A stretch of DNA of 59,825 nucleotides, the filler included, from Sphacelaria rigidula (lineage: Eukaryota): NCBI GenBank assembly GCA_964200075.2. It is 5 parts of 5 records of this genome, joined end to end, with 100 filler letters (N's around TTAATTAATTAA, not from the genome) between each part and the next. Parts side by side here need not be neighbours in the genome. Positions count along the whole stretch, not along the records: positions 23,973 to 35,857 come from CAXNAA020004377.1; 4 more parts are not named here. One strand, written 5' to 3'. The notes below the pieces were generated by a model, which saw nothing but the letters and a program-made list of their open reading frames with translations, was not told where the DNA came from and did not search any database. Shown here piece by piece: positions 4,346-54,500 of this stretch; the stretch's first letter is position 1; the number at the start of each line of letters is the position of its first letter. The position numbers and the translations under genes are program-made.

Positions 4346-7300
4346 ATGTCTTCCACCACTACACCGAATGTCGCCGGGCGGCTGATGCTGATGAGGAGTG
4401 CGGTGGTTTGCCTGGCCTGTCTCGCAAACACCAGCTTCGCTTTCGTGGGGCCTCTATCAGCTGTGCGCACAACTCCCACATCGAACAAGGCATCCACCAC
4501 TTCTACCACAGCAGCGCGTCCTAGCCGTGGGAGCTTTGTAGGCGTCCCTGCCCTGACTGGACAGCAGCAGCAGCAGCATGGCGCCGACCTGGGGACTGGA
4601 TTTGGTGTCGGTGCCGTGTCTATGATGGGTGGAGATGGAAAGAAGACGTGTATCATCACAGGCGCCTCCTCTGGTGAGCGAGACACTTGACAAGTTCGGG
4701 CGGCGGGCAGGGTTGTGCACGTTGACAAAGAGGCATGGGAGTAACCTAGATGTTTTGGAAGTATTATGGTGATGGGATTGGTTGTGGCGGAGTACGGCCG
4801 GGTGTCAGCGTGTGGCTGCTCCAATCACTCAGCATGAAACGGCCCGCTGCAAACCTGTCGGTATCACATGTACAGTATCATGTGTTCGAGAAATATGAGC
4901 TCCTGTTGTTGTTGTTGTTGTTGTCTTCACATTAAAAGCCGTTCCGATATCTGCGCGGTACATTGGTACTGGGCATCTNNNNNNNNNNAATAAAATAGAT
5001 CCAGAGTGAAAAACTCACAAAACGCGATACAAGCAAACAGAAATAAAGAAGAAATTCCTGTACTCTCTGTTTTTCGACGCGTGTCGTCTGGTGGTGCGTT
5101 CGTTTCTCAGTATCGCCAGCCCACACGGTACAGCCAGTACACACAACGGTAGGTTTGTTTTGGAGGAATATGATTTCAAAACTGAACATCAGCTACGATA
5201 GTGCACTGCAGTGTACACAGCACCATCGTGTACACGGCGTTACTGTGTAAGTCGCATATGCCCGCCTTATCTCGAGATACTTTTTTCCCTCTCGAAGGAC
5301 CGCATCACAAGAGAAAAATGACCATCGCACACTGGAGTGCAGGATCGGGTTCAGCGTGCGGCGGGCCAATTCGGCGAAGAGATCAAAGGCTCGGCCGGGC
5401 GGCCTATTTTCGCAAATGGGTCGATCTGGCGCCGTACAACTAAACCTGTACTACTGTGCTGCACTACAGTATACTACACACTGTACTGTATTGCCTGACT
5501 GCGCAATACAACGTGGTCGGGCTTTCTCGCCTGTGCGCTACCTGTATCTGCTTACTATGTCCACTCTCAAGTACTACAGTACGGGAAACCGGCGGGCGTC
5601 GGGCGTCCTGATATTTTTTCAAATGATATTTTATCGAGCGGGGGTACGAGTAGCCTGCATTGGCGAACCGGCGGCGAGACCTACCGACAAATGCCGATGG
5701 CTTGGCGGCGATACAGCTGTGGGATTCATGAGCACCGTCGTTGTTGAGCAAACTGTGTTTCATACGTGATTTCGTCTCGGACATTCTCATGGCCTTTTCT
5801 TTGACATCGTTCTTGTTGCTCTCGGCGATGCAAACATTTGTACGACCGGAAATGTCGGTACGGAATCTGCAGTCCCCTTGTTACGCCTGCGAATACTCGA
5901 AGGAGGGAACCTCCAATACTCAGCTCCGGACCTATTAATGCAAACATTTGTACGACCGGAAATGTCGGTACGGAATCTGCAGTCCCCTTGTTACGCCTGC
6001 GAATATTCGAAGGAGGGAACTCCCAATACTCAGCTCTGGACCCATTAAAGTCAAAAATGTAAAACGTAGAAATGAGGGAGGAAGGACTCCGGCAAGTTGC
6101 CGTTCAAAGGGGAAGGTGCTGATTGGCCAGGATCCCCTGACCCCATACCCAACAGTGGCCAGCGCCGGGGGAACATGGAGAAATGTCTCTGGGCCAACAC
6201 GTATCCGCGTGGATAGATGGTCGTCCTCGCATTCAGTTCAGTGAAATATATGATTTATGACCAGCATGACGTGAACCTCATCGCGGTCGATACTTTGATG
6301 GCTGGGTTCGATGGTACACGTGTTGATGCTCTTTGAACGCGCTGCTCCTCAGATTCTGATGGAACACTAGCAGTCGCCAGGTCAAAAAAGTTTTGTGTAA
6401 GACGATGGTTCGCTGCGTGGACACAACGACGGCATTCCCCGTTGCCCCGACAAAATGTTTCGGTCCCTTGGGCAATTTTCAAGTTTCGGCTATGTGGCAT
6501 GAAACTCGGGGCGGGAGATGTGTCATGTTGCTCTGGTTCGATAGGGTGATCGAACACTGCATGCCATTCGTGGAAAAGTCCGCACGCAACACGTCTATTC
6601 AACTATACCCACTCACGTCGCACTCCTCTCCCCGCCCTGCGTGCCGCCCGCCCCATGAAGGTATCGGTCTCGAGGCCGCCAAGACACTGGCATCTTCTGG
6701 AGAATGGCATGTGATCATGGCTGTGCGCTCGTTCGCCAAGGCGGAACTGGCCGCTAAATCGGCGGGGATGGACCCATCGGCCTACACGGTTATGGACCTC
6801 GACCTGGCCAGCCTCAACAGTGTGAGGATGTTCGCCAAGGCCGTGAAGGCTGCTAAAGTTAAGCCGGACGCGCTCGTATGCAACGCTGCGGTCTGGTACC
6901 CCAAGGTGAGGTGGATAAGATGTACAAGTACGGTGGGATCGACGTCCCCACAATCTCGAGTTTCCAGCGATTATTGTGGATATGGTGTGTATGCTGTGCT
7001 GTGGCACGTGAGGATTCCGTCGCCGTATGACTGAAGGGGGGCGAACATACTTACAAAAACGTTTGGCTGGAAGATAACCAAAGAGAATGGTGGGCAGCGA
7101 GAATAATGAAGTCTCGTTGTGCCGCCGAGTGAAGCCGGCACAAGAGTAGAGACTTGCAGGACGTGCGTGCACTATGGTACAATGGCGCACAGAAGCCAAA
7201 TCATTTTGCTCCATGTTGGCTCGAATATATATATATCGACGGTGGAAAAGCGAGTTTTATGCACATATCGCACGGAGAATCCGCGTAGAAATTTGGTCGG

Positions 7301-11886: not shown

Positions 11887-11986
11887 NNNNNNNNNNNNNN
11901 NNNNNNNNNNNNNNNNNNNNNNNNNNNNNNTTAATTAATTAANNNNNNNNNNNNNNNNNNNNNNNNNNNNNNNNNNNNNNNNNNNN
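11887..11986. other. Artificial contig linker (N44-TTAATTAATTAA-N44)
   Basis: A six-frame-stop spacer between N runs, identical at four places. Confidence 0.97.
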
Positions 11987-17986: not shown

Positions 17987-18102
17987 TCCTTTTTTTTTTC
18001 TTTCCCTCTTTTTTGTTCGTTTGCGTGGTGTTTCGGTGTGTTGGNNNNNNNNNNTTTTTATTTTTTTGTTGTTTGATACTACTTTTTTGATAATTCCACC
18101 CC

Positions 18103-23872: not shown

Positions 23873-23972
23873 NNNNNNNNNNNNNNNNNNNNNNNNNNNN
23901 NNNNNNNNNNNNNNNNTTAATTAATTAANNNNNNNNNNNNNNNNNNNNNNNNNNNNNNNNNNNNNNNNNNNN
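23873..23972. other. Artificial contig linker
   Basis: N44-TTAATTAATTAA-N44. Confidence 0.97.
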
Positions 23973-26450: not shown

Positions 26451-26617
26451 GAAACCCTGTGAAGCGTACTGTGCGGCGCGAAAGAAAAACCTACAGCCAA
26501 ACCCCCGCGATAAACACTGCACAGTTTCCCTGAAGCCCTGTGAAGCGTACCGTGTGGCGCAAAAGAACACCCTACAGCTAAATCCCCGCGAAAAACACTG
26601 TACAGTTTCCATGAACC
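26451..26617. repeat. Tandem duplication, 2 x 81 bp
   Basis: gaaaccctgtgaagcgtac... at 26451 and gaagccctgtgaagcgtac... at 26532. Confidence 0.9.
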
Positions 26618-27010
26618 CCGGAGACGTGCCCCGTAGGGTGCGATCTGTCCACGTGTGCACTTTGAAGATTTTAGAGACACTTCTAACAAGGGTCCAGCTG
26701 AGACCACTCCGGTCTCACCGCCGCAATCCAAGACCAACGTCACAAAAACCGAAATAAATTGAAATTGGTAGCGCCGTGGGCACAGGGTAGTATATATACA
26801 GATATACGAGCATGCGCATATTCGTGTGTCGTGCATATGCCGTTCGTGAGTGTGCAAAGTAAAAAAAGGTCCTGGAAATGGGAAAAAAACGTTTCGCATG
26901 GAAGCTAACGGACGTTGAAACTGCTTATTGTAGATAACATGACCTTTCGCCCTCTCTGAGCGTAGAACGGCCGACTTCAGACGCCAGCTACATATATGCA
27001 TATATACATA

Positions 27011-30000
27011 TCTCCCCGACCGCCACCCGTCTGGGGTTGGTTGCGTCGGGGTAGGCTGTCCCCCTCGACAACAAAACCAGTAGGTAAGGGAGGGTAAGTT
27101 GACCTACTGGCATGTCTGCGTATCGTGTCAGTGGTAAGGCAACATACAGTCTCGGTAGTGGGTCATGTCGACGGTGCTAATGCCCAGGCTCAACCCTACA
27201 GCTTCGGAGTTCCACCCCAGAATGCGAACCAAACTGAACCCCGCAGCTGTAGCGTTTTACCCGGCGATGAGACACTGTCACGGAAAGCACGTTGATGGAG
27301 ATGAGGCATGTGTGATCAAATATCAGATTTGGCGGACTGGAGACAGCGGCCGACGCGGGGTGGGAAGGCTGCACCCTTCCCGCGAGACCAACAAACAAGG
27401 CAAGTACCGTGATAGACGTGCCCAAGAAAAATCGGAACAGAAACAACAGCTCGCCCGTACAACTAGGGGGCGGAACAGACGAAGGAGAGCAGAACGAAGA
27501 GAATACGCGTGAATAAAAAAAAGACCCCAGCTAGGACGCGTAGTGGGGAGCTCAAAGTGGCTACCTATAACGTCCGCCCTCACGGGAAAGGACGAAGCTG
27601 GCCATGCTGAGGTGGTCCTGAGAAAATGTCAGGCAGTCGGATGTGATGTGATCAGGCTACAGGAAACGAGGAGACCACGTCGATCCGAGTTTTGTGCGGT
27701 GGGATACCGCGTCTTTTGTTGCGGGGCAGAGGAGGTCAAGGGAGGGGCTGGTCAACATGGGGTTGGGTCGGCGGTCAAGAAGTCGATCATCAGCACGGCG
27801 ACGTGGACTCAGGCACTCATCAACGAACGCCTCATGTCGATGACGTTCAACCTAGCGGGAAAATCAAATGCTGCTATGTTTGTTGTTGTATACGCCCCGA
27901 TAAACACTCCACAGTCGAAAGAAGAAAGAGATGTATTCTGGACTGAGTTAGACGCCATTGTGAAGCGTATCCCCCACAAGCATCACCTGTTTATTTTGGT
28001 GGACGCTAAGGCGAGGACTAGACTACGAACAGGCGAGGAGAAACTCCCGATCCAACGACAGAAACGGCACATCTCTAATGCAATTTTCAGGCGACAGCGG
28101 GCTTTCCCTGGTCAACACGTTCTTTTCCACTCCCAAGGGAAACACCTCGCGTACGTTCAACGGTGTTGGAAATCACCCCGCGGACAGAAAACGCATTGAC
28201 TACATCATCACACGGCAAGATCGCCCCTGGCTTGTTCGCAATGTCACCGTCCACCTCCAACCCCCCACCTCGCCGGACTCTGAACACAACATCGTGTGCG
28301 CCTCAGTGCGGCTCCTTGGTCGCTTCGCACACAACAGACCAAGACGAATCCCAGTTGGGCGTACACCGATCGACAGACGGGCTAAAGTATCTGACCCCGT
28401 CAGACGTGAGCAGCCAACTAGCTCATTATCACGAGCTCGAACAGAGTATACCTGGTGATACAGTTAGTTCACTGGCTACGAACTTTGCCGACGTACTCTC
28501 GAGTGCCGCTGAAAAGGTGGTACCCCGTTCGACCCGAAAGCCACGTATACCGGGGTGGTTCGAGGGTGCTGAAATCTGAACGTAATTCGAAGAGGCCTGG
28601 ATGGAGAGAGAAAGGGCGAGATCAACGGTGAGACTGGGGTCATCTCGAGATGAACTCGCATGGCGCATATTGCGAGCAGCATGTAAAAACTTGAAAAAAG
28701 TGATCGAAGTTGGGGTTGACAAATATATGAATGTGTATGCTAGAGACCTAGAGGAGTATACTCGAGCGGGGGACATGAGAGGATGGTACAGGCATCTCAA
28801 CGGAGGTTGGAGACTATCTGGACGACCAATCGAGAGTGAGCAGTACATTCGAGATGAGGACGGCAATTTACTGCGGGACGGAGGTGTGATCAGTGGGAGA
28901 TGGAAGCGGTAGTTCATTGCATTGCTGGACGCCATATCGGCAACTATCGACTGCACCATTATCGAGAAGATTGCTCAACGACTAATAGCGTTGTCAATAC
29001 GAGACCCACCAAGCCCAAGTGAAACTGAAGAGGCTCTGAGGGCGATGTCGAATGGCAAAGCAACCGGTCCGGATGATATTCCTGCTGAAATCCTTAAGCT
29101 TGGAGTCAACGGGGAGGCGTCGGACATTCTGTACCACTTCCACGACATCGTCTCTGCGGTTTGGACATCTGGCGAGGTGCCGCAAGAATGGAAAGGTGTC
29201 ACCATCATAATGCTACACAACAAACAAGCTAGGACCCAGTGTAGCAACTTCAGAGGCATTTCACTTGTGGCATATACTGCTAAAGTTCTCCTTAAAGTCG
29301 TAGCCAACAGGCTCGGTGAGTTTTGTGAGGAAATAGATGTCTTCCCGAAAGAGCAGTGTGGATTTAGACGCCAAAGATCGACCATAGACATGATGTTCGT
29401 AGTACGGCGACTCCAGGAGTTGGGACGGGCAAGTAACATCCCAATAAGCATGTGCTTTATTAATCTGCATAAAATCTGCATTCTGTAGACCGCACGCTCC
29501 TGTGGGAAGTGGTGGCTCGGTTCGGAGTCCCGTCGCGAATGATCACGATTATCCGTATGTTTCACGACGGCAAACGAGCTCGAGTACAGCTAGATAGTGG
29601 CGAACTATCAGCGTGGTTCGACGTCTGCCAGCCCTCCAGTTTCTGGCTGCGCGGACCCCTGTGGCAGATGAAAAAATAGGGGTGAAGCGTAGATATTCTG
29701 CGGCAAATACTGCACGATTTCGACCCCTGATCCAAGCACTCTTGGGCTTGAACGACGGCTAGTAGTTAGTTTTACCACCCTGCAGAGTTTTAGCTTGCGG
29801 ACATTCGCACGGCATCAGTAATCTTCGATTGCGTGTACGAAAGATATGTTGGAGAATGACTTTTTCGCTTGTAAGGTACTCAGATAAGGTTGCGTTTTGT
29901 CTCCGCTGCTGTTCAACATCTTCGGAGCAGGCTTGATGGAAGTGATCGTCCAGCGGTTTACGGTGGACCCAGTCATTATCTCAGACTTGGTATTTCTACA

Positions 30001-31320
30001 TGATGCGCCACAAGGTGCCCATGGTGAACCCGTGGGAGAGACGCCGCTTGAAAAAGCGCGACGCGCGGTGTGGGCGATGCTTTATGCGGACGACGCCGGT
30101 ATAGCCTCGAAGACCTCAGAAGACCTCACTCGAATGATGGCCGTGATAATGATGACCTGCCAGGAATTCGGCCTGATGGTGTCCGAGAGCAAGACAGAGT
30201 CCATGCGCCTTTGATCAGTACCCAGTTCCACGGAGGCCACCCTGGATATCAACGCTGCCGGTCAACGGCATAAGCAGACGGGGAAGTTCATCTACCTTGG
30301 TGGAGCAATCAGCACGGATGCGAAAACGTCCATCGAAACCAACCGCCGTATCAGCGCGGCGTTGGCGCGTATCCGCAAATATAGTTCCCAACGCTGCGAC
30401 CGACCCCACGCCGAGCTACCCTTGAAAGTTCGACTGCTTAAAGCGGAGGTGGTAGAAGCTCCGTTGTATGTATGGGTGTGCCACATGGACGCTACGTTCT
30501 GAGGATTCGACGGTCTGCGCACTGCCCATCACAAGCTCTTGCTGCGAGTGGTTGGATTCCGCGGGAACAATCGAAATGGCTACAAGACTCTTTCGTGCAG
30601 AGCGGTGCTCGAGATGACCAACTGCGAACGTATCGAGACGACTATCCGCTAACGTCAACTCTTGTTCGCGGGATCCCTTACCCGGCAGAAGGACACACGC
30701 CTTCCTAAGCGTGTCATGAGCGGTCGGCTTTCCACATGAGGACCCAAGGAGGTCGGCCGCCCCCGAGCTATGGGAGGATACCCTAAAGGATAACCTACGT
30801 GCGCTAGGGGCTGTTCCCCACAAAGGAGCCCGACGAAAGGGGTTCGTCTACGGTGTAGAGGTTAACGATGCATACGATTGGGTCACTGCGGCGAAGAACA
30901 TGGGCAAATAATGGTATATTGGAGTCGAAAAGGGAGCGCAAGAGTTTGAGGACACGTGGCGACGCGCAGAAAAGCGAGAATCAGACTGCCGTCACAAGGG
31001 AGAGGCTGCTGTGTCGAGGACTGCCAATCGGAGAATCCTGTCTGCTCATATCGGTTGTTGTTCATGTCCTTAGTTGGTGGCTCTGCGGTGCCCACTGGTG
31101 GGTACCTGTATCTACTCTGCTGTTTGAGATTTTGGCCTTTTCCTTCTCTTTTGTTTCAATCGTTTTATTGTATTTCATTTCATTTACTCCTTACTGTCCT
31201 CTTCTTCTCCTTTTTTTGTTTTTTAGGTCTGCCATTTCTTTTTGTGCTTTGCTTGTATTGACGTTTTTATGGTTATTTTGGTTCTGTTACGACTTACAGT
31301 AGTTATTTGCAGGATCCGTA
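27011..31320 (+). mobile_element. Near full-length, inactivated non-LTR retrotransposon (RTE clade): 5' UTR, single PAM2-APE-RT ORF, 3' UTR
   Basis: APE motifs: LKVATYNVR, LQETR, VVYAP, IDYI, DSEH. RT motifs: GPDDIPAE, NFRGISL, EQCGFRRQRSTIDMMF, LR*GCVLSPLLFNI, YADD (30083-30094), FIYLG. RTE-type C-terminus RLPKRVM...GRP. The ORF has many stops and frameshifts, and the 3' UTR matches 53371-53580. Confidence 0.93.
27165..31000 (+). pseudogene. Endonuclease-reverse transcriptase pseudogene with N-terminal tandem PAM2 motifs
   Basis: Fragmented across ORFs 27165-27512, 27543-28199, 28078-28458, 28601-28912, 28922-29488 and 29897-30214, plus unlisted frames. Confidence 0.9.
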
Positions 31321-33361
31321 GTTTTGAATTTTATACTGAAAATAGACCGAACGCGTGATTCCGCCGCTTTTTTTCATCATGCTTCAGCCAACATCGCGGG
31401 CATGCCAGCAAGGATATCTGGGGGTACAGTGCTCCCCCCGCGTGAACAAAGATATCGTGATAACCGCCGTCAAGTGGAGAAGCCGAATATTCGCGTATTA
31501 CAGGGTCAACTGCCGCGTCTGGTGAACACGGTGGGTGGGAAGAACCCCCACAAATCAGGTGGTACGCTGCGAACTTGAAGATTGGGGCTGTCAGGAAACA
31601 CACTGAAAGCCTTGCATGTAACGGCCACAACAGTAGAGAATAACACTCGCACAGGGTCCGTAGAGAGCACATAAAGGCTGTAAAAAAAACAGTTTTGAAA
31701 ACAGAGCCCTATCGGCGCCAAACGACCGAGGTGAGCATCACCGCTGCATGGCGGGTTTTGGGCCGTTACGGGCCGTCCTCTTGGGGTCCTGCAAAGTTAA
31801 CGTGGACGAATCTCGACACCCACATCTTCCACAGGCCCTCCTGGGGCCACCACAGCGCCTTGACAGCTGCTTTCACTGGCAGTGGAACGTTCACCACGGT
31901 AGGTGAACCGAATTTGACAAAAAGAACAGCTTGATTGGTGTTTTGACTACTTCCGCGCAGGTTCGGCACGTTGACAACAAGGTCTGCAGAAGATCTACTC
32001 GAAGCTGAGCCCCTATAAGGTGAGGCCCACGTACTACACGGTCTGTACAGCCTGCGTACCTGCGTGTACAACTCCATCACGGAGCCCCCCTCAACACAAA
32101 ATGGCGCCAAGGCGACGACCTCATATCATAGAGAGACAAAAACACCCGTTGGCACGGGCGAAGAAGTGCCTTTGACCGCTGACAACCGCTCGCTCGCGAT
32201 GGCCCTCGAGCTGGGCAGAGGGGCTGAAATGCTGGAAGCGGACTCGCACTGGCTCTAAAAATCGGTGAAGCAGTACAGGCTGCACAGGCAAAGAACGTAC
32301 GCACAGATCGCTATCCAATCACTACAATCAACGCCAACCTCGACTGTTTTGTGTCATGTGCCCTCCCCACGTGCAGGAAAGCCCAGGACAACGCGGAGGG
32401 AGCTGCTTGCACTGTCTGTACAGTAGCGCAGCCTGGACACACACCCGCAGCCAAAACCAGGTGAGGCCAAGCACACAGCGATGTTCACAGTCGCGCACAA
32501 AACTATTGAAAACAGCATACGCTTACCCCAATAACAGCGCGAGGATGTAATGCAGCACTGTCACGCTCGCCTCCAGTCCAGTCCTCTCCCTTTCTCCCAC
32601 TCGTGTGCACCGCTACCTGTCTGTGTGAGAGGGGTCATTTCACACCCAAATACTGTCACGGTATAAACCACCCCCGTGATAGAAAGACACCAAATTGCAC
32701 CCGTCTGGAAGCGCCATAAGCCAGCCAGCCGCTTGTGCCTTCATGGTGCGCGCTCACCTTACAATACGCTTGTGCTTTCACGGTCAACCCCTATGCAAAC
32801 GCCAGTGCCTTACCGTGGTCGAAACCACAGCGGCAATCACGCCCACCTGTTTCCTGTACACACCCCATGCCGCGCGCAACTGTCGTACCGTCACCAACAC
32901 CATTCACTCCACCATGCCGCTGTAATCACACGCGAGTATCGCGCCGACAGCCCTCAAGCAGTATCACCAGGGACTATTCGATTGTGCATGCCTGTGGCGT
33001 CGCACCAACGCAGCATAATGCATGGGGGTTACCCGCTCATATATCATGCTGTTTACCATCCCCCCTCGCCGCTTATTTCCATGGGCCGCACGCGGCCTAC
33101 GACGCGCCGCCATCACTCTGTCCACCGCACCCGCCGTTTACCCCTTGCGCCATGAGGTTCTCCCCGCAAGAGGGCGCCGAAATACAGGGATCTGCGGCAG
33201 AACCTTGGGGCTAGAGTACCCGTGTTGCCTCCCCCTTGCGCGGTATAGTACTGTAGGACACAGTACTGTCCGGTATCGGGCACACACAACTTCATTTCAG
33301 CTTGGCGGTGATCACGAAACCGACCCTGCCTCCCGCTACTATCCATACAACAGGCCCCGGT

Positions 33362-34854
33362 ATGTCGACCCCTAAGCAAAGAAAACCCATGAAGGTGATG
33401 CAACAGCTTAGAGCTTCGGCGGCGAAAAAGATTAGGCACGAGAAGCGACATCAGAGACTGGTGCGTGATTTTTTGGACGACAGGATGCAGGATAAGAAGA
33501 CGTGGAAGCGATGTATGGAATTTTTGAAGAGGAAGCAAGGGCAGCGTGTGGGCGCAGAGACGGTGAGTGCACATCACTGGAACATGTACAGAATGATTTG
33601 TTGCTAATTATGTGAATAGGAAACATGTGATCACGCGGGGCGATCAGTGCCGCTAGCATTCCCATTTGTTCGCCATGGTAACTCTGCATGCTGTGGGCAC
33701 AGAGCTGACACCCCTGCCGTCATAGATAACATCGAACGGCTGCGTTGACTCATCACATCAATCAACAACATGAACGAGGATACTTTTCCGCATTGCAAGC
33801 AATACCGCCGAAGTATACTCCTGTGAGGCAATCATCGCATCACGAAAAACGTACTGCAGTACCCTAGAGCCCCCGCGCCCCGGCCGCATCGCGACTCAAA
33901 CCCTCTCTGTCCAAAGGCGGGACAGGCTTTTCATGAATACTACACGCATCGTTCCGCCGATGTTGAGAAGTCGCAGGCCCTGACGACGGTGTACTCCAAC
34001 CTCGGGATATCACGGTCCACCATGCAATCACTCATCGACCGCTTCGAGAGTAGGAGGCAGCTTGGCTCCACTGTTGAACGTACGGGCATAGAGAGCACCG
34101 TCTTCACCCCCGAGGTACAGTCAAGGATGGCGAAGAAAACCGATCATACCAAGACCATTGGGCAGGCAGTGACAGTGCGTCTTCTGCAGCGCTGGCTTGC
34201 CAGTAGCCCCGATGCAAGCGACCCCCACGACGAAGACCGCGAACCGCTCAACGTTGCGGAAAGTGCCGTGGCGCGATGGCTGGGGCAAATGGGCTACCGC
34301 TCGCAGGAGGCGAAGGCGGGATATCGCGTGACGGAGGAACGAAAAGCGCGTCTAAGATAATTCCTCATCGATTTTTCGGAGGCGAAGGAGAACGAAATGT
34401 CCGGAGAGAATGTGATCACGTTTATGGACGTGATACCTTCATGTAGGTCGCCGAATGAAGAAATCAATTTTCCCCGAAGGGGGAAACAGGTCGTTCAATA
34501 CTGCCCGGGCTGAAAAAGCGCATGATCCTTGTCCACGCCATCACCGAGTATGGACCTCTTGTCGCCAAGGAATACTGCGACCCAGATACGGGCATCCCGA
34601 AACCCGAAGGGTGGTTTCATGCCTGCAGTTCGACGGCATGTCCGCGTCTCCGTGGCGGCGCTGGTGTTGTCGGTGGACGGGGGGCGCGAAGGAAACGGAA
34701 CAGTACCGGGCGGAGCGATGGCGATGTCGGCGACGGAGGCGGGGATGCTGACGACAGGAAACGACACGCCACCAGTGGGCAGGGGGGGGGGGGGGGGGGG
34801 GCCACAAAACCGGGGAGGGGGGGGGGCCCCCGGGGGGGGCCCAANNNNNNNNNN

Positions 34855-34950: not shown

Positions 34951-35812
34951 GGCATTCAATCACGGATAGTGAGGCGGCCCCCAGGCGGGGACCAAAAAGT
35001 CGTCATGTCGCCCGTGCTCGTGCGAACACGGAAGATAAAAAAAAGGAAATCGTAGCGCCCAGGGACGCGCCGGAGGCGACGGGACGGCCGCCGCCCGAAA
35101 TGCACGGCGGCCTCCTTGTAATGGCAACGATCGTTGGGGCCGCATCCTCAGGAGAAACACCATGGCTACGAACGGCAAGAGGGCGACCTCGGGCGGAGAC
35201 GAGGGTGTTGGCCGTATCGGGAGCGGCGCCGCGGGTGCCGGCAATGGCCGCATTGCAGACATGAAGGAGAAGGCAGCCGACGAGGGTGGGGCCGGCGCAC
35301 GGGTCCAGCGGAGGGGGGGGGGGGCAACGCCTGTGCGGTCTGCGGCTGCGGGTGACGGCGGCGTCAAGGGTGAGGCGAAAGGGAGGCGGCAGCACGCTAA
35401 CACCAATTCTGGCTCTGATAAAGACAAATGTGCGGCGAATCGTCGACCTGCACCGGCGGGCGATGCAAGCGGCCGCGAGGTGCCTCCTCACGACGAGAAT
35501 TTCTCTGCCGCAAGTGAGGCGATGCATGCGGGGAGTCACAAACGTGACGACGACGCGACCACTGGTTCCCGCGTGAACATCGATGAGTTGTTCACTGCCG
35601 AGATGCTGTTCGAAGCGGGGGAGAATTCGGCGAAGTCCGATTACCACAAAAACATGGACGCCGACATGTTCGAGCAGTTGGACGCCGACATGTTCGAGCA
35701 GTGGTTGGAGAAGCAATTTCTCCCCACTTTCCAGAAGAAGCATCCGGGAAAGCGGGTCATCTTAGTGCTCGACAATGCAGCATATCACCACGGCAGACAC
35801 TTTCTACGATAG
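33362..35812 (+). pseudogene. IS630/Tc1/mariner-type DDE transposase pseudogene, one intron, 3' truncated by contig end
   Basis: Exon 1 33362-33562 (|gtgagt) joins in phase to 33917 (ccaaag|). Motifs: HTH-like LGISRSTMQ, RWLGQMGY, first Asp motif VITFMD (34427), KRMILVHAITEYG, DYHKNMD..MFEQWL..QFLP and ILVLDNAAYHH (second Asp 35771). There is a stop at 34358 and frameshifts near 34430-34520. Confidence 0.82.
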
Positions 35813-35857: not shown

Positions 35858-35957
35858 NNNNNNNNNNNNNNNNNNNNNNNNNNNNNNNNNNNNNNNNNNN
35901 NTTAATTAATTAANNNNNNNNNNNNNNNNNNNNNNNNNNNNNNNNNNNNNNNNNNNN
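35858..35957. other. Artificial contig linker
   Basis: N44-TTAATTAATTAA-N44. Confidence 0.97.
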
Positions 35958-41900: not shown

Positions 41901-44900
41901 AACTCGTGCGTTAAACCATAGTGGGGTCCTTAGCTATTAGCTATCAAGAGCTGTTCATGATACCCACGCCGTGACACGTACCGTTTTACTTGCTGTGCAG
42001 AAGTGCGCGAGTGCCCATGTATTGAACTACTGACCTGAGGGGGTTAAGCGAGCTACCAGGACAAAGACGCTCTCGCTTCACCCAATTGTTGGGAAAGGTA
42101 AAAAAATCAATATCTACGACCAGATATTACTTCTTGTTAGTGCACTGATCCAGATCATGATAATGATGCCGACGATTTGGTTGCTTTTTTTCATATTTGT
42201 TCCCTGCAGCGTGGGACACCGAGCACCAGTGTCTGGTGAATCGTGAATTCGGTGATTTTGAGTCGTGATGATTTGTCCTAACCGTGAAATCATTCTACAC
42301 CTGGAGCCGCAGGGTGAGGTCGCAGGAATTCGGCTGCATTTTTATGTACACATATTTTATTGGAATTTCCCCCCCCGAAAAATTCAGGGTAGGGATTCGT
42401 GACCAAAAAGCGTCAATATCGAACTGGGAAGATACCACAAGCACATCATATCTCTTACGATATATTGTTCGAGCTGACCTTTTGGTGCTGGAGACAAGCG
42501 AGCTCCTTGTCGCCGCCGACCCGAAGCCGGAAGCAATAGCCAGACATTGTCACGTCCAGACATTGCCTGCCCACTCTACACCTTAGCTTGAACTGAGCCG
42601 ACGAATTGATACATTTTGTTTTTCGTGTGTGTGTGTGTTTGTGTGCGCGCGCGCGTGTGTTTTCGTTCAAGCATTCCGCAGCAACAATAAACGACAAGGC
42701 AGCAACAGCGCGGAAGAGAGGCAACCGAAAGACGCGGAACAGACACACGGTTATACGACACCAATGGACAAGACACGCCAAGGTAGGGTAACGTTAGGGG
42801 GTAAGGGGATGTAAGAACGGACAACATGCACAACAACATCGGCAGCGTGCATCGTCTGTGCCGCCCCAGACACTCGGCAAGGCAAGTTAGCAGGTCAGCA
42901 TCAAACGGTACATGGTCCGTCGTGTTCCTCGTGACATGGTATGCCTTCTTTTTCGGTCGCTATTGTCACCACCACCTCCAAACATGAAACATCAAACACC
43001 TCACCAGCAGCTAGGATAAAACCAATGAAGGAGGAACAAACCTCATCATTCGTTGGGTTCATTCACACCCGTATTCAAATGACTCTCGCTCCTTCGCCCT
43101 CAGATATTGTTCATACGATCCATGTACCCACCACCGCGTCCCGGTGATCCATAGTAGCAGGTGATACTGATACATTTCAAATCGGTCTGGGCGTGAGAGT
43201 TCAACACCAGCAAATTCGTTCGTTTTTTTGTCAGGCAACCCTAGCTTTGTTCAAAACGTGAGGTGAGGAGAGGAGTAACAAATAAAAATCGACTACCGCC
43301 GGTGCGGTGCGGGAGGGCCGATAGTCATCATCCAACTCGCGAAATCAACAAGTTGGGCAAGTGCCGGGGGGGAGATACGTTGATACCTTGAGACCAGCGA
43401 CACGCCCCACGTAAGAGGAGGGGCTGAAGGCATGACGAGTATATGTCAACATATACTGCACATGTTACTTTGTGCTTTGCTGTGTGCGTATGGTCAACTG
43501 CCTCATAATGATTGGCAGCAACCGTATTTTCGAGATGTTCTTCCACACGACATGTGGACAAGGCCCTAACCATGGTTGTTGCACCACGAGCACCCATCGC
43601 TCCCTATTCTCTTGTACCGCGGATACCTCCACCGTGGGATGAAGAGTACCACAGCTAGCTCTAGGCAGCTCACTACGAAAGCAGGTACGACGAAGAAGGC
43701 ATGTACTAACATGACAAATCACCATCTCGTGCGAAAGGGCGTTCGTTGGTGACAGTCATAGTTCACAACATGATTCGCGAGGTAAATTTTCATCCAGATG
43801 ATTGTTTGTTGTTGTTGAAATTGACCTCTCACTCCTAGTGCTACCCGTGGCCCTACTTTGCGCCGTCATCACCTGCTTCTCCAGACATTGCGCGAGGCGG
43901 ATGAGAAATGCCGTCGCGGTACTTCGAACCGCGTCTAGCTCGTCAGGCCACTTGCCCGAGCTCTCAAGCCGAAGCAGCACCTCTAGCGGCTCCACCTTTT
44001 TCACAGATATTCGCCATGATAAATAAAAAATAAAACGAAAATACGACCGGAAGACCAGCAGCAGCGAGGCATTCTGGTCTGAAACATGGCCACGCACGGC
44101 ACAAGACACCACAATGTTCGTCCTTGCTTTCTCTACCGGTAACAATAGACGAAGATAACATTTTGGACGTGATCGAAAACAACCTGCAACACAACACAAC
44201 ATAACATAACACAACACGGCACAAAACAATACAAGCCAACTCAACACGGACACCCGTTCCTTCATACATAGTCCTACAAAAGCAAACAAAGGAGACTCAA
44301 GCGACACGTCAAACACTTGAATACGGACAGGTGAAAAATCAAGATTATAACAAGAAGAAAAAATGTCCGGTCCCGTCCTGTTCTAAATCAATAATTTTGC
44401 GTTACAACGGAGGACGGCGTCAATAACACCAACTGTACATGTTCAGCCACGCCAAGGCAGTCACTATTTCTCCGGCATTTCGGGCGAGATTTTTCTTTTG
44501 TCAAGGGATCACGAGCAATGACCCCTTTACCCCCAACACGGTTCGCTGGTTTGGTCCGCACTGGATCAGATCAGACTGGGGAAAAGCAAAGAAACGCACC
44601 TGGGACGTCAGCTTGGAGGATTTGCGGGGAAGAGAAATCACCGTGTCCCCGTTGCAGCGGGGGCTTGTGGCCATGGGGTGTGGTGCCGGCGGTAGGAGAG
44701 ACGTGTAGCGGAGGAGCGGTGAAGTTGCTTGCAGTGCTTCCACCCTCAAGTACCAAGGAACAAGAAGACATGCAATGAGCAAAATATCAGTACAGTAGGT
44801 CGACCTATACGGAGTCTGCTCGTGGCTAGCAACCTCTACGCATGCTTTATGTACGCCACTACGTTGTATTTGAGAGATATTTCCGGTACGAAAGCTAAAA

Positions 44901-47841: not shown

Positions 47842-47941
47842 NNNNNNNNNNNNNNNNNNNNNNNNNNNNNNNNNNNNNNNNNNNNTTAATTAATTAANNN
47901 NNNNNNNNNNNNNNNNNNNNNNNNNNNNNNNNNNNNNNNNN
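47842..47941. other. Artificial contig linker
   Basis: N44-TTAATTAATTAA-N44. Confidence 0.97.
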
Positions 47942-51500: not shown

Positions 51501-54500
51501 CGTTTGTTCTTGTTGCACTTTCGACTAAATTCAGGGTTTTAAGACCTGAGCACCCCTGAAAAATTCGAAAATGACATGTACAGTTGACGAGTCCGTTGTC
51601 CGTTGTCTATATGCACTAACAATGCCAACGAACGTCAGTACAGACAGCTACGAACATGTACAAGTGAGCCGCACACCCTCTCTCACTCGTGTCATCCGGG
51701 CGGACACCCACAGTCGTCAGCACCCAGCAAAAGCGTATTTCACACTCTGTGTAGCAAATAGCGACGAGCACAATCTACGGGTAGTGACGCTGTTTTTGTC
51801 GTACTAATAGTGGTGGTGCTTTGGGGCCTTGTGGTACCCTCACATACGCCGCCTCTGGGCCAGAAACGATTTCATCTTGAAACGTGCCCTTTTTTCCAAT
51901 GCGTTCCCGAGAGAAATTGTTTGTTTTGGACTAGGAGAACCTGGTCGGTGGCTCCTCTATCTCTGTGCGGGCGCATGTGTGTGCACCGTGTGCTGTGGGA
52001 TTTTACAAAGTTGTGTTTCCGTGAATTCTGTAAGCCTCCCATACCCGTACTCGATAGTGCTGCGAGTTCTGCACAGAATGTTTACCCTTACCCGGGGCAC
52101 GGGTATGCCCTTGAAAAAATACCCGGTTGCGGGTACGACTCTCTGTCAGCCGCCCATTTCCTACACGACGAGTTCTGTAATGTCCGTTACACTTTCATAC
52201 CGGTACCCGATAGTCTTGTAAATTCTATACGACTTTCATACCCCTACCCGACAGTTCTGTAAGCTCTGGAAGCCTCCCACACCCGTACCCAGGGTTGGGG
52301 TATACTGTTGTAGTCATATCGTCCGATGCAAGTACGAGCACAGGTATATAGCCTGGGGAGGTATGGGTGTAGGTTCAATCCAAACAAAACCTCATGACTT
52401 GAACGTGTACCCCAACCTCCCATCAATCAACCCACCCTCGTTCACCCAACACCACATACCCACAAAAAACTGTAAGCTGACGGGTTACGAAGTACTGCTG
52501 AGTGAAAACACGAAACACGAGCAGCGCTGCAGACCGTGAGGATGGATCATCCCAAGACTCGAGCGGTGGCTCGAGCGGGGGTGGTTCATCTGCGCCACCA
52601 GGGGCATCAAATAGCGAGGAGCAGGTTCTCGACGTTGATGGTGATTGCCTCCACCTCACCAAAACCAAGGGCGTTTGCGACACGAACGATAACGTTATAA
52701 GCTGGGACCAGAAGTCTTCAACGCTGTCGACAATTTCATGGTGCCCCGAAGGGCTTCCCGAGAGCGGGCAACCGTGAAAGCCCCTTCATGTACTCTCTGG
52801 GATTGTATGTAAATCCAATAGAAGTTGACAAATCTCAGTCACATGTACTACTGCATGGCAACCCCATCCTGCCGCAGACGAAAACGGTTGTTCCTTGTAG
52901 AAAATACCACCCTAGCAACGTGAACACCCACCACAAGAGCAAGTACCTAGGCTACATGGGGTAATCTTAGTGCTGCATTTCGTTTGTGTCCCCGGTTTCG
53001 TGCTGCATGCGTACTCCACCAAGGCCGAACGGTGTAATTTCAGTGTGGCGCTTCATTTGTATACCCCGGGTATTTGTCCGGGTATTACCCGTATGCCCGA
53101 CGGGTCTGTGATATCTGTGAGCATACCATACCCGTACCCGGTAGTTCTGTATGCTCTGGAAGCCTCCCTTATCCATACCCTTACCCGACAGTCCTGCACT
53201 TTCTGTAAGACTTTCATATCCTTACCCGATCGTTCTGTAAGTTCTGTAAGCCTCCCGTACCGTTACCGGGGGCACCGATATGCTCTTGATAAGATATCCG
53301 GTTGCAGGTACGTTTTTCTGTTCAACGTCTATCCTCTACCCGATATATGGAGTGACATCCAGGATTATACCCTGAGTCGGTGGCTTTGCGGTGCCCACTA
53401 GTGTGTGTGTGTGTATCTACTCTGCTGCCCTGAATCCCTTGGGCTTTTTCCTTTTTTTGTGTTATTTTATTCCATTTGTTTTGCTCGTTTCTTTCCTCTT
53501 ATTCTCCTTTTTTTTGTTTTAGGTCGGCCATTTCTTTCTGCGCTTTGCTTTTGTTGACTTTTTTATTTATACATATTTTTTGCTTCACGTCTTAGTCTAC
53601 TATATCGTTCTGTTCGACTTCTTTCTGTTCCTTCTTTTCTTCCGCGAGTGTTTCAGTTTTACTCTTGTTGGGTACGTCTATCATGCGACCACGGCTGGAC
53701 CCCTGGGGGGTCAGTTGAAGTGCGACAATCAACCAATCAAATCAATCAATTACCCATGGGGCAGTGTGGAACCCGTGGCTGTGTATGGAAGTGGCGATAC
53801 CAGATAATGAAGCAACTCGTTGGAGGTTGTCATCCAAATGCAAGATAATCAGTACGCTCCGAGCCGAACAATCTTAGCAGGATGCAGCTCACCCTTCATG
53901 CGACTCGCCATACACATCACGGCGCTTCGCCATTGGTGTGATTGCGGGCCTGGCCCGGCAAAAACCCGGCTTGCTCCGACCTGGTTTTGTAGGGATGCGA
54001 GGTCGATGGTCATATGACTATGGCATCCAACATCATGAGCACACCATCATCCCCTACCCCAAAAAATATGTGAATTCTGTAGGCCTCCCATACCCTTACC
54101 CGACGGTTCTGTGAGTTCTGTACTGAATTTACCCTTACCTAGGGCGCGGGTATATCCTCGAAGAATAACCGGTTGCGGGTACAGGTTTCTGTAAAATCTC
54201 TATACCCCACCCGACAGGTGTTTGTGAGTTCTGCAAGCCTCTCATACCTTACCCGACACGTTCTGTAACTTGTATACTTTCATACCAGTGCCCGATATTC
54301 CTGTAAGCTCTATATGGGATCTCATACCCTACAGAACATACCCGTACCCCACAGAACATAACCTTGGGATGTTGCATGGCCTGGTACAACCGCACTCGCC
54401 GTTCAAACCCAAGATCGCCTTCAGAACAGCAGAGAATATCGATTTGCAAAGAACCACATCACTCGCAACAGGAGCAGCAGTCACTTGATACAACGAGAGA

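Follow-up and report, generated by a model that had tools for sequence, protein, structure and literature searches.

A decayed RTE-like LINE in Sphacelaria rigidula and relatives with PAM2-type motifs at the N-terminus of the endonuclease–reverse transcriptase, possible tethers to poly(A)-binding protein

The window analyzed here is a whole stretch of 59,825 nt of DNA from Sphacelaria rigidula; all coordinates count along it and refer to the plus strand unless stated otherwise. It contained one copy of a long interspersed nuclear element (LINE), RTE-like and decayed, of the kind that encodes an apurinic/apyrimidinic (AP or APE) type endonuclease (EN) and a reverse transcriptase (RT) in a single open reading frame (ORF). 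The element extended from 27012 to 31380, both ends being approximate, and was delimited by contig depth and by tblastn with a related protein of 1163 aa (P0050). Its 5′ untranslated leader (27012..27164) lay inside the repeated part and was followed by an N-terminal ORF of 115 aa (27165..27509) with two motifs of the PAM2 type, a ligand for the MLLE domain found in poly(A)-binding protein (PABP). In the window copy this ORF was severed from EN by a change of frame.

The AP-type endonuclease domain lay at 27545..28340 across frames 2, 3, and 1, as found with Exo_endo_phos and tblastn; the corresponding domain occupied residues 130-389 in an intact metagenome relative, L001. The reverse transcriptase domain (29228..30214) was in pieces, with RVT_1 detected in the ORFs at 28913-29488 and 29888-30214. 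Within it, a stretch of ~244 bases (29630..29873) was absent from other copies: the joint 29629>29874 was present in 5, 6, 7, and 1 contigs of four sequencing runs, and the same interval was a gap in the tblastn cover by P0050. A T/C-rich 3′ untranslated region (UTR) without an A-tail occupied 31011..31380, its end being uncertain. Residues 7-1160 of P0050 were spread over 27285-30992 in the frame order 3>1>2>1>2>3. Because the ORF pieces matched Exo_endo_phos and RVT_1 and the P0050 cover ran through shifting frames, the window element (~27.0–31.4 kb) spans the full length of its LINE yet is dead; the LINE itself, of ~4.4 kb, is abundant and has a single ORF with an AP endonuclease.

Contigs of four public sequencing runs were aligned to 26800-31500 at an identity of at least 80%. 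In run X1, the mean contig depth rose ~160-fold, from 24.5 at 26800-26956 to 3,983 at 26957-27113. It reached 5,017 and 9,661 over the motif region and stayed between 1,350 and 52,000 through to ~31352, after which it fell. The depth over 30400-31350 was 5–10 times that of the body of the element, with maxima of ~52,000–62,000 in runs X1 and X3. A LINE that is present in very many copies and frequently truncated at its 5′ end gives such a profile, and the excess at the 3′ end fits many 5′-truncated copies or non-autonomous elements sharing that end. The jump fell just 5′ of the N-terminal ORF, and therefore this ORF belonged to the element, as an earlier sequence-only reading of the window had supposed. 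No RNA run was listed among those containing the window DNA; one run tentatively taken for RNA had contigs over the 5′ part of the element, which is not read here as a sign of expression. A stretch at 53371-53566 was 76.9% identical to the element 3′ UTR (31068-31270) and had no adjoining coding part. It may be a 5′-truncated copy, or a short non-autonomous element sharing the LINE 3′ end, as for RTE-X in Ectocarpus (PMC12477816, available in part). A run of (TACATATA)n stood at 26989-27011, directly at the 5′ edge of the element, and an 81-base unit was repeated 2.1 times (86% matches) at 26451-26619, ~400 bases upstream.

The 115-aa ORF ran from the ATG at 27165 to a TGA at 27510. Its first PAM2-type motif, PRLNPTASEFHP, was located at 27183..27218 (residues 7-18), and the family consensus for this motif was SRLNPAAAEFYP. 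The second, TKLNPAAVAFYP, at 27228..27263 (residues 22-33), was homologous to the only motif of other lineages. The positions of both motifs were exactly those given by the sequence-only reading, and the Arg-rich tract that it noted (...RGRNRRRRAERRE) followed them. Its term "tandem" applied to the subfamily of the window element; the other lineages carried one motif. Four lineages were aligned: A, the window type; B, beginning MASAVHC...; C, beginning MGFK...; and D, comprising L001, P0079, and P0080. A translation of the leader (27012..27164) looked similar, by eye and without alignment, to what P0022, a member of another lineage, has upstream of its motif.

Alignments revealed a conserved basic module (..HCHGKHVDGDE..V.KYQI.RTG.SGRRGVGRLHP.RE..) at 27264..27377. 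Its pieces GK, VSK, and GRRG.GRL(H/N)P were retained in most lineages. Lineage D was variable, with GCRSWLGRLHP in L001 and with HHSRE and VGTH in P0080. The module was followed by an Arg/Lys-rich stretch (27378..27545), which corresponded in the alignment to a long helix predicted by AlphaFold2 in the relative P0006.

The frame breaks of the window copy were mapped by tblastn of three relatives (P0003, P0026, and P0020) against the window. The first segment was read in frame 3 through ...AERRE, to ~27503; the second was in frame 2, carried RVNKKKTPARTRSGELKVATYNVR, and extended up to 27577; the third was again in frame 3 and began LTGKDEAGHAEVVL. The first break (27498..27512), at which the high-scoring segment pairs of P0026 and P0020 switched from frame 3 to frame 2, gave the in-frame TGA at 27510-27512. 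This stop arose because the reading frame shifts at ~27503, and a point nonsense mutation at 27510 was accordingly rejected. At the second break (27576..27577), 8 bases present in some other copies were absent. These 8 letters were inserted after 27576 in a minority of copies (2, 1, 2, and 1 contigs in the four runs). Their absence is what returns the window copy to frame 3, and adding them back gives ...NVRTLSLTGK, the sequence of the family. Thus, the sequence-only reading was right in proposing a continuous protein and only partly right in the three point repairs that led to it (TGA to CGA, one extra A, and one deleted base), in place of which stand the tblastn frames and the 8-base gap after 27576.

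A HMMER search with the 115-aa ORF over 1.84 billion representative proteins returned 35 proteins at E ≤ 1e-3, including 12 at E ≤ 1e-10. One of them, P0017, was a tandem-repeat ORF of 692 aa with eight segments that matched residues 23-86 of the window ORF (28% identity, E 3.3e-8). It could be a satellite array derived from the element's 5′ coding region, and it was excluded from all alignments and counts. The remaining 34 shared one plan: M-x-x-V-L-x-S-R-LNPAAAEFYP, then V-L-G-x-K-LNPAAAEFYP, the module (..HCHGKHVDGDETRVSKYQIRRTG.SGRRGLGRLHP.RETK..), the Arg/Lys-rich stretch, and ..GELKVATYNVRTLSLTGK.., which is the start of EN. Four relatives (P0006 of 256 aa, P0028 of 254 aa, P0003, and P0026) were open from the motif or the linker into EN. 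Longer proteins were not matched when they were searched for with the 115-aa ORF alone, and a family profile gave 35 matches of 451–1163 aa. Among these, ~20 lineage-B ORFs (P0045-P0065, 451–810 aa, with RT also present in P0048) began MASAVHCQLNPQVRPFVP... and continued into EN. P0044 (663 aa), which began MMGFKLNPDALEFFP..., read from the motif into EN, and P0097 also carried the motif in frame into EN. The named relatives were P0003 from Sphacelaria rigidula and P0076 from Ascophyllum nodosum. Some sequencing runs with the window DNA were labelled 'algae metagenome', and with these names a brown alga or a close relative is the probable host. P0076 (526 aa) opened with ~45 residues of the N-terminal module, from downstream of the motif, and went on as an ammonium transporter (PF00909), probably through a chimeric gene model or exonisation of an element fragment.

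Intact full-length frames came from metagenomes. A profile query built from a smaller alignment detected three loci there, L001 to L003, and none in genome contigs or viral contigs. L001 was a contig of 4579 bases with an intact ORF of 1244 aa that began MASVGLVAIQSVLNPDAEVFVP... and contained PAM2 (17.5 bits), Exo_endo_phos (130-389), and RVT_1 (700-975). The only frame of at least 80 aa upstream on the same strand was one of 92 aa at 2-280, open at the 5′ end of the contig, without an ATG, and outside the domain scans. L002 was a second, cut copy, and its DNA was open from the ATG via the motif into EN without a stop. A search with residues 1-140 of the L001 ORF found P0079 (1205 aa, MGSVLNPNAMVFVP...) and P0080 (1223 aa, MPFIFNPNAKEFIP...), which open with the motif, as do their cluster members P0082, P0083, P0084 (1205 aa), P0087 (1180 aa), and P0095 (1223 aa). 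The motif-bearing ORFs of 1180–1244 aa thus numbered eight; they came from metagenome records in three clusters that were mutually 63–69% identical, started with one motif, and contained Exo_endo_phos and RVT_1. With the shorter ORFs that read through, they bore out the earlier proposal that the motifs were the N-terminus of a single EN-RT protein, and the motif is very probably a conserved part of that protein.

In the 115-aa ORF, PAM2 (PF07145) was the only Pfam family detected, with an E-value of 5.3e-4 and 19.9 bits (cut-off 20) over two stretches. The first 40 aa of the window ORF gave 24.5 bits (E 1.8e-5, two stretches), and the 40-aa N-termini of L001 (23.7 bits) and P0001 (24.6 bits) also exceeded the cut-off, again with PAM2 as the only family. 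A search of PDB sequences with the ORF returned no PAM2 peptide, only four weak and unrelated matches (E 0.22–1.3). In the four lineages, which were 33–47% identical to P0006 by BLASTP, motif 2 of the window aligned with a single homologous block, [LF]NPx[AV]xxFxP. The key residues L/F3, N4, A7, F10, and P12, all present in both motifs according to the sequence-only reading, stood at fixed spacing in all four, with A7 replaced by V in lineage B. In the core of P0080, FNPNAKEFIP, every key position was retained, the first with F in place of L. A second copy, 15 residues upstream, occurred in lineage A alone and is therefore a tandem duplicate.

The DNA of window unit 1, window unit 2, and L001 was identical at 22–24 of 45 bases. 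Six of the 15 residues were the same across these three units, namely L, N, P, A, F, and P. Three to four of the six were retained by synonymous codons (CTC/CTG/CTT, CCT/CCC/CCA, TTC/TTT, and CCC/CCG), and the changes at the other nine positions were all amino-acid replacements. Because the key residues were kept through synonymous codons while the rest were replaced, the comparison argues for a constraint acting on the peptide rather than the DNA.

Among 83 family proteins (30,839 residues), 41 contained the pattern [LF][NS]xx[AV]xx[FYW]xP, with 44 matches in all; every match started in the first 60 residues and none lay elsewhere, which shows positional specificity and not 44 independent events, the 83 proteins being kin. 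Shuffled sequences gave 0.15 matches per round. An ELM-like pattern matched 15 proteins, at the N-terminus only. AlphaFold2 was run on P0006 with 20 aligned sequences, and the EN part was poorly modelled. Residues 1-70 had no predicted secondary structure (pLDDT ~50) and residues 72-132 formed a helix (pLDDT 81–96). The N-terminal tail is thus probably disordered, as expected for a linear motif. Among protists, the PAM2 cores of ataxin-2 include LNPNATAFLP, PNPAAAPFVP, and FNPAATPYTP (PMC12898128, available in part), and the family variants V for E, P for E, and F for L fall in that range. The same partial text describes typical ataxin-2 orthologs in Ectocarpus and tandem duplicates of the PAM2 core in plants (PMC12898128).

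We propose that the motif engages host cytoplasmic PABP at its MLLE domain and tethers the EN-RT protein to its own mRNA, a reading to which we give a probability of roughly 0.55. Because the motif would leave the ribosome first, it could bind co-translationally to PABP on the poly(A) tail of the very mRNA being translated. The nascent EN-RT would then be kept at the 3′ end of the RNA that encodes it, the point from which reverse transcription has to begin. This could provide cis-preference and the assembly of a ribonucleoprotein in an element without an ORF1 protein, and a tandem pair of motifs could raise the avidity toward multimers of PABP. That the motif binds the MLLE of PABP, whatever the purpose, appears likely, and more so than the tethering itself.

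A comparable step has been proposed for human L1. There, an element of ORF2p named PIE (residues 272-297, after EN) is predicted to bind RRM1 of PABPC1, and both activity and co-localisation are lost when PIE is mutated (Ghanim et al., 2025; PMC7617806, available in part). In the authors' proposal, cis-preference is set during translation, possibly with protection from deadenylation as well, and neither PAM2 nor MLLE is mentioned in the available part of that article (PMC7617806). A broader and more tentative scheme is that ORF1-less brown-algal RTE-type LINEs and their relatives solved cis-preference independently through an N-terminal PAM2, convergently with the L1 PIE, with the motif doubled for avidity and with a PAM2-less isoform; taken as a whole, this scheme is doubtful.

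Several observations weigh against tethering through a PAM2 motif. The Pfam scores were marginal: P0044 of lineage C reached 16.3 bits and the full L001 ORF 17.5, lineage B (LNPQVRPFVP) and the more distant L003, which had no clean motif, received no PAM2 score, and eight of 53 family members matched PAM2 at E ≤ 0.1. The whole N-terminal 85 aa were conserved nearly uniformly within subfamily A, and conservation inside the subfamily therefore says little about the motif. The longest ORF calls of lineage C (P0050, whose cluster had 2648 members, P0096, P0106, and P0108) started ~30 residues downstream of the motif, and so did not include it; the lineage-B call P0140 (1094 aa) also started downstream. 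Finally, the genomic copies, L001 and the window element, ended without an A-tail. Because of this, RT was probably not priming on poly(A), and PABP would serve tethering, not priming.

The start positions of these ORF calls can be viewed together with their relatives. P0028, which was 96.3% identical to P0050 over 187 aa, carried the motif in frame. The 'MSKQQ' at the start of the lineage-C calls sat where relatives have 'VSKQQ', and its M is read, from the protein sequence alone, as a GTG start picked by a prokaryote-type gene caller. In lineage B (P0045-P0068 and P0140), there was a conserved Met 2–3 residues past the motif (...FVPT[AV]M[AT][PS]KLAY), and the ORF calls P0066-P0068, P0076, and P0140 started at it. 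Alternative initiation at this Met would yield a protein without the motif.

Other PAM2 adaptors compete for MLLE, and here the first alternative arises: the motif may bind MLLE but serve translation or RNA stability, by displacing deadenylase adaptors, by stimulating translation, or by riding on shuttling PABP. The sequence evidence is the same for this alternative as for tethering, and protection from deadenylation is also discussed for L1 ORF2p and PABPC1 (PMC7617806, in its available part). However, a low-copy protein would be a poor global competitor, and the extreme N-terminal placement of the motif in all eight motif-bearing ORFs of 1180–1244 aa better fits an early, co-translational action. 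A role in stability or translation is thus possible but rather unlikely.

MLLE is also present in a HECT-type ubiquitin ligase. The partner could accordingly be another MLLE-bearing protein, or an unrelated reader of the LNP..F.P peptide. The unscored lineage B, whose V and P stand at sites that are usually A and E in PAM2, and the lack of a clean motif in L003 would agree with such a partner. However, three of the four lineages matched Pfam PAM2 as the sole family, all key positions were retained in the P0080 core, and the P-for-E variant occurs among protist ataxin-2 PAM2 cores (PMC12898128, in the part available). We therefore regard a partner other than PABP as improbable, and binding to the MLLE of PABP as the better account of the motif.

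It was also considered that the likeness to PAM2 arose by chance, and that a requirement at the DNA or RNA level (an internal promoter, for example, or structure in the 5′ RNA), or simply the shared ancestry of dead copies, explains why the stretch persisted. Internal promoters are frequent at LINE 5′ ends, and the near-uniform conservation over 85 aa in subfamily A and the marginal Pfam scores would be expected under this explanation. It is disfavoured, and held to be quite improbable, by the three compared units, in which only 22–24 of 45 bases were identical, the key residues were kept by synonymous codons, and every other residue was replaced. The pattern was also retained in intact ORFs and in lineages only 33–47% identical to P0006, and 44 matches were observed against 0.15 in shuffled sequences. 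Least probable of all is that the motif has a small upstream ORF to itself (ORF0 or ORF1), unfused to EN-RT in active elements: its separation in the window, the several long ORF calls that start downstream, and the conserved lineage-B Met point that way, but it is disfavoured by the single open frame from ATG through motif to EN in L001 and L002 (to RT as well in L001), with no stop, and by more than 25 ORFs in four lineages that read through.

With respect to the clade, L001 had the AP-type EN N-terminal to RT in one ORF, which matches the RTE/RTE-X layout. Its 3′ end (4530-4579) was a pentanucleotide repeat of the (ATACA)n type that followed a T/C-rich 3′ UTR and is probably the tail repeat of the element. 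The 3′ UTR of the window copy was likewise T/C-rich, with no A-run and no clear repeat tail. The single ORF and the AP-type EN, with the probable repeat tail of L001, fit RTE-type elements, 'RTE' being used here as a label. Look-alikes of the L001 ORF in a protein atlas were generic EN-RT clusters, with no clade name or useful taxa among them.

Elsewhere in the window, ten ORFs picked by eye from 30 of at least 170 aa were scanned for domains, and no PABP was found among them. An ORF piece at 35039-35812 (+) matched a DDE_1 transposase (E 3.2e-5), one at 6360-7034 (+) a short-chain dehydrogenase (adh_short, E 1.9e-6), and one at 43756-44382 (−) Nrap domain 4 (E 3.8e-14). These probably represent another transposon and two host gene exons. 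The window contained twelve N runs, 392 letters in total; a run had either 10 or 44 letters, and those of 44 came in pairs 12 bases apart (906-915, 4979-4988, 11887-11986, 18045-18054, 23873-23972, 34845-34854, 35858-35957, and 47842-47941). They are gaps or masked stretches, and none lay in the element.

How a LINE protein finds the RNA that encodes it is a long-standing question, and for human L1 a direct contact between ORF2p and PABPC1 was proposed in 2025. Capture of PABP for cis-preference is thus not a new idea (PMC7617806, available in part); the route through PAM2 appears to be new. No PAM2 motif in a transposon protein was reported in the full-text literature searched, a search that covered titles and the starts of abstracts and left most subscription journals outside, and one apparent PAM2 match proved to be the PAM250 matrix; a PAM2 on a LINE EN-RT protein is probably undescribed before. 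If the tethering holds, a distant LINE family without ORF1 but with an MLLE-ligand peptide at its N-terminus would support, independently and by convergence, the view that capturing PABP is a strategy of LINEs in general. Within the literature searched, it would also be the first PAM2 reported on a transposable-element protein and an example of a mobile element copying a short linear motif of its host. The idea is readily testable, since it concerns a 12-residue peptide with known key Phe and Leu residues and a small, well-studied domain.

Three known systems can be compared with this family. The first is the PAM2 proteins (ataxin-2, PAIP, eRF3, and LARP4), with which it shares a core of 10–12 residues, the spacing of L/F, N, A, F, and P, the predicted disorder, and a marginal Pfam match; tandem duplicates occur in plant ataxin-2 relatives as well (PMC12898128, in part). 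In contrast to them, the motif here is borne by the EN-RT protein of a retrotransposon, at its extreme N-terminus (residues 3-22), and one lineage has V/P variants without a Pfam score.

The second is the brown-algal RTE and RTE-X elements. The transposable-element library of Ectocarpus lists LINE/CRE, RTE, RTE-X, and Unknown (PMC12477816, available in part). Like the elements described there, the present family is abundant, often 5′-truncated, and encodes EN and RT in a single ORF; it may also have short non-autonomous partners sharing the 3′ end, and its nearest named relatives in this study come from Sphacelaria rigidula and Ascophyllum nodosum. The difference is that the LINEs in the available part of that article are drawn with EN and RT only, its main text containing no occurrence of PAM2 or PABP, whereas the motif is present here besides (PMC12477816).

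The third is the PIE of human L1. In both cases, a LINE EN-RT protein has, near its N-terminal part, an element proposed to contact PABP, and thereby to set cis-preference co-translationally and to place the protein at the mRNA 3′ end (PMC7617806, in its available part). PIE follows EN and has RRM1 as its predicted partner (PMC7617806), whereas the algal motif stands ahead of EN and belongs to the MLLE-ligand type. In addition, L1 has ORF1p and an A-tail, whereas the algal family has one ORF only and lacks an A-tail in its genomic copies. A function shared by the algal motif and the L1 PIE would thus be convergent.

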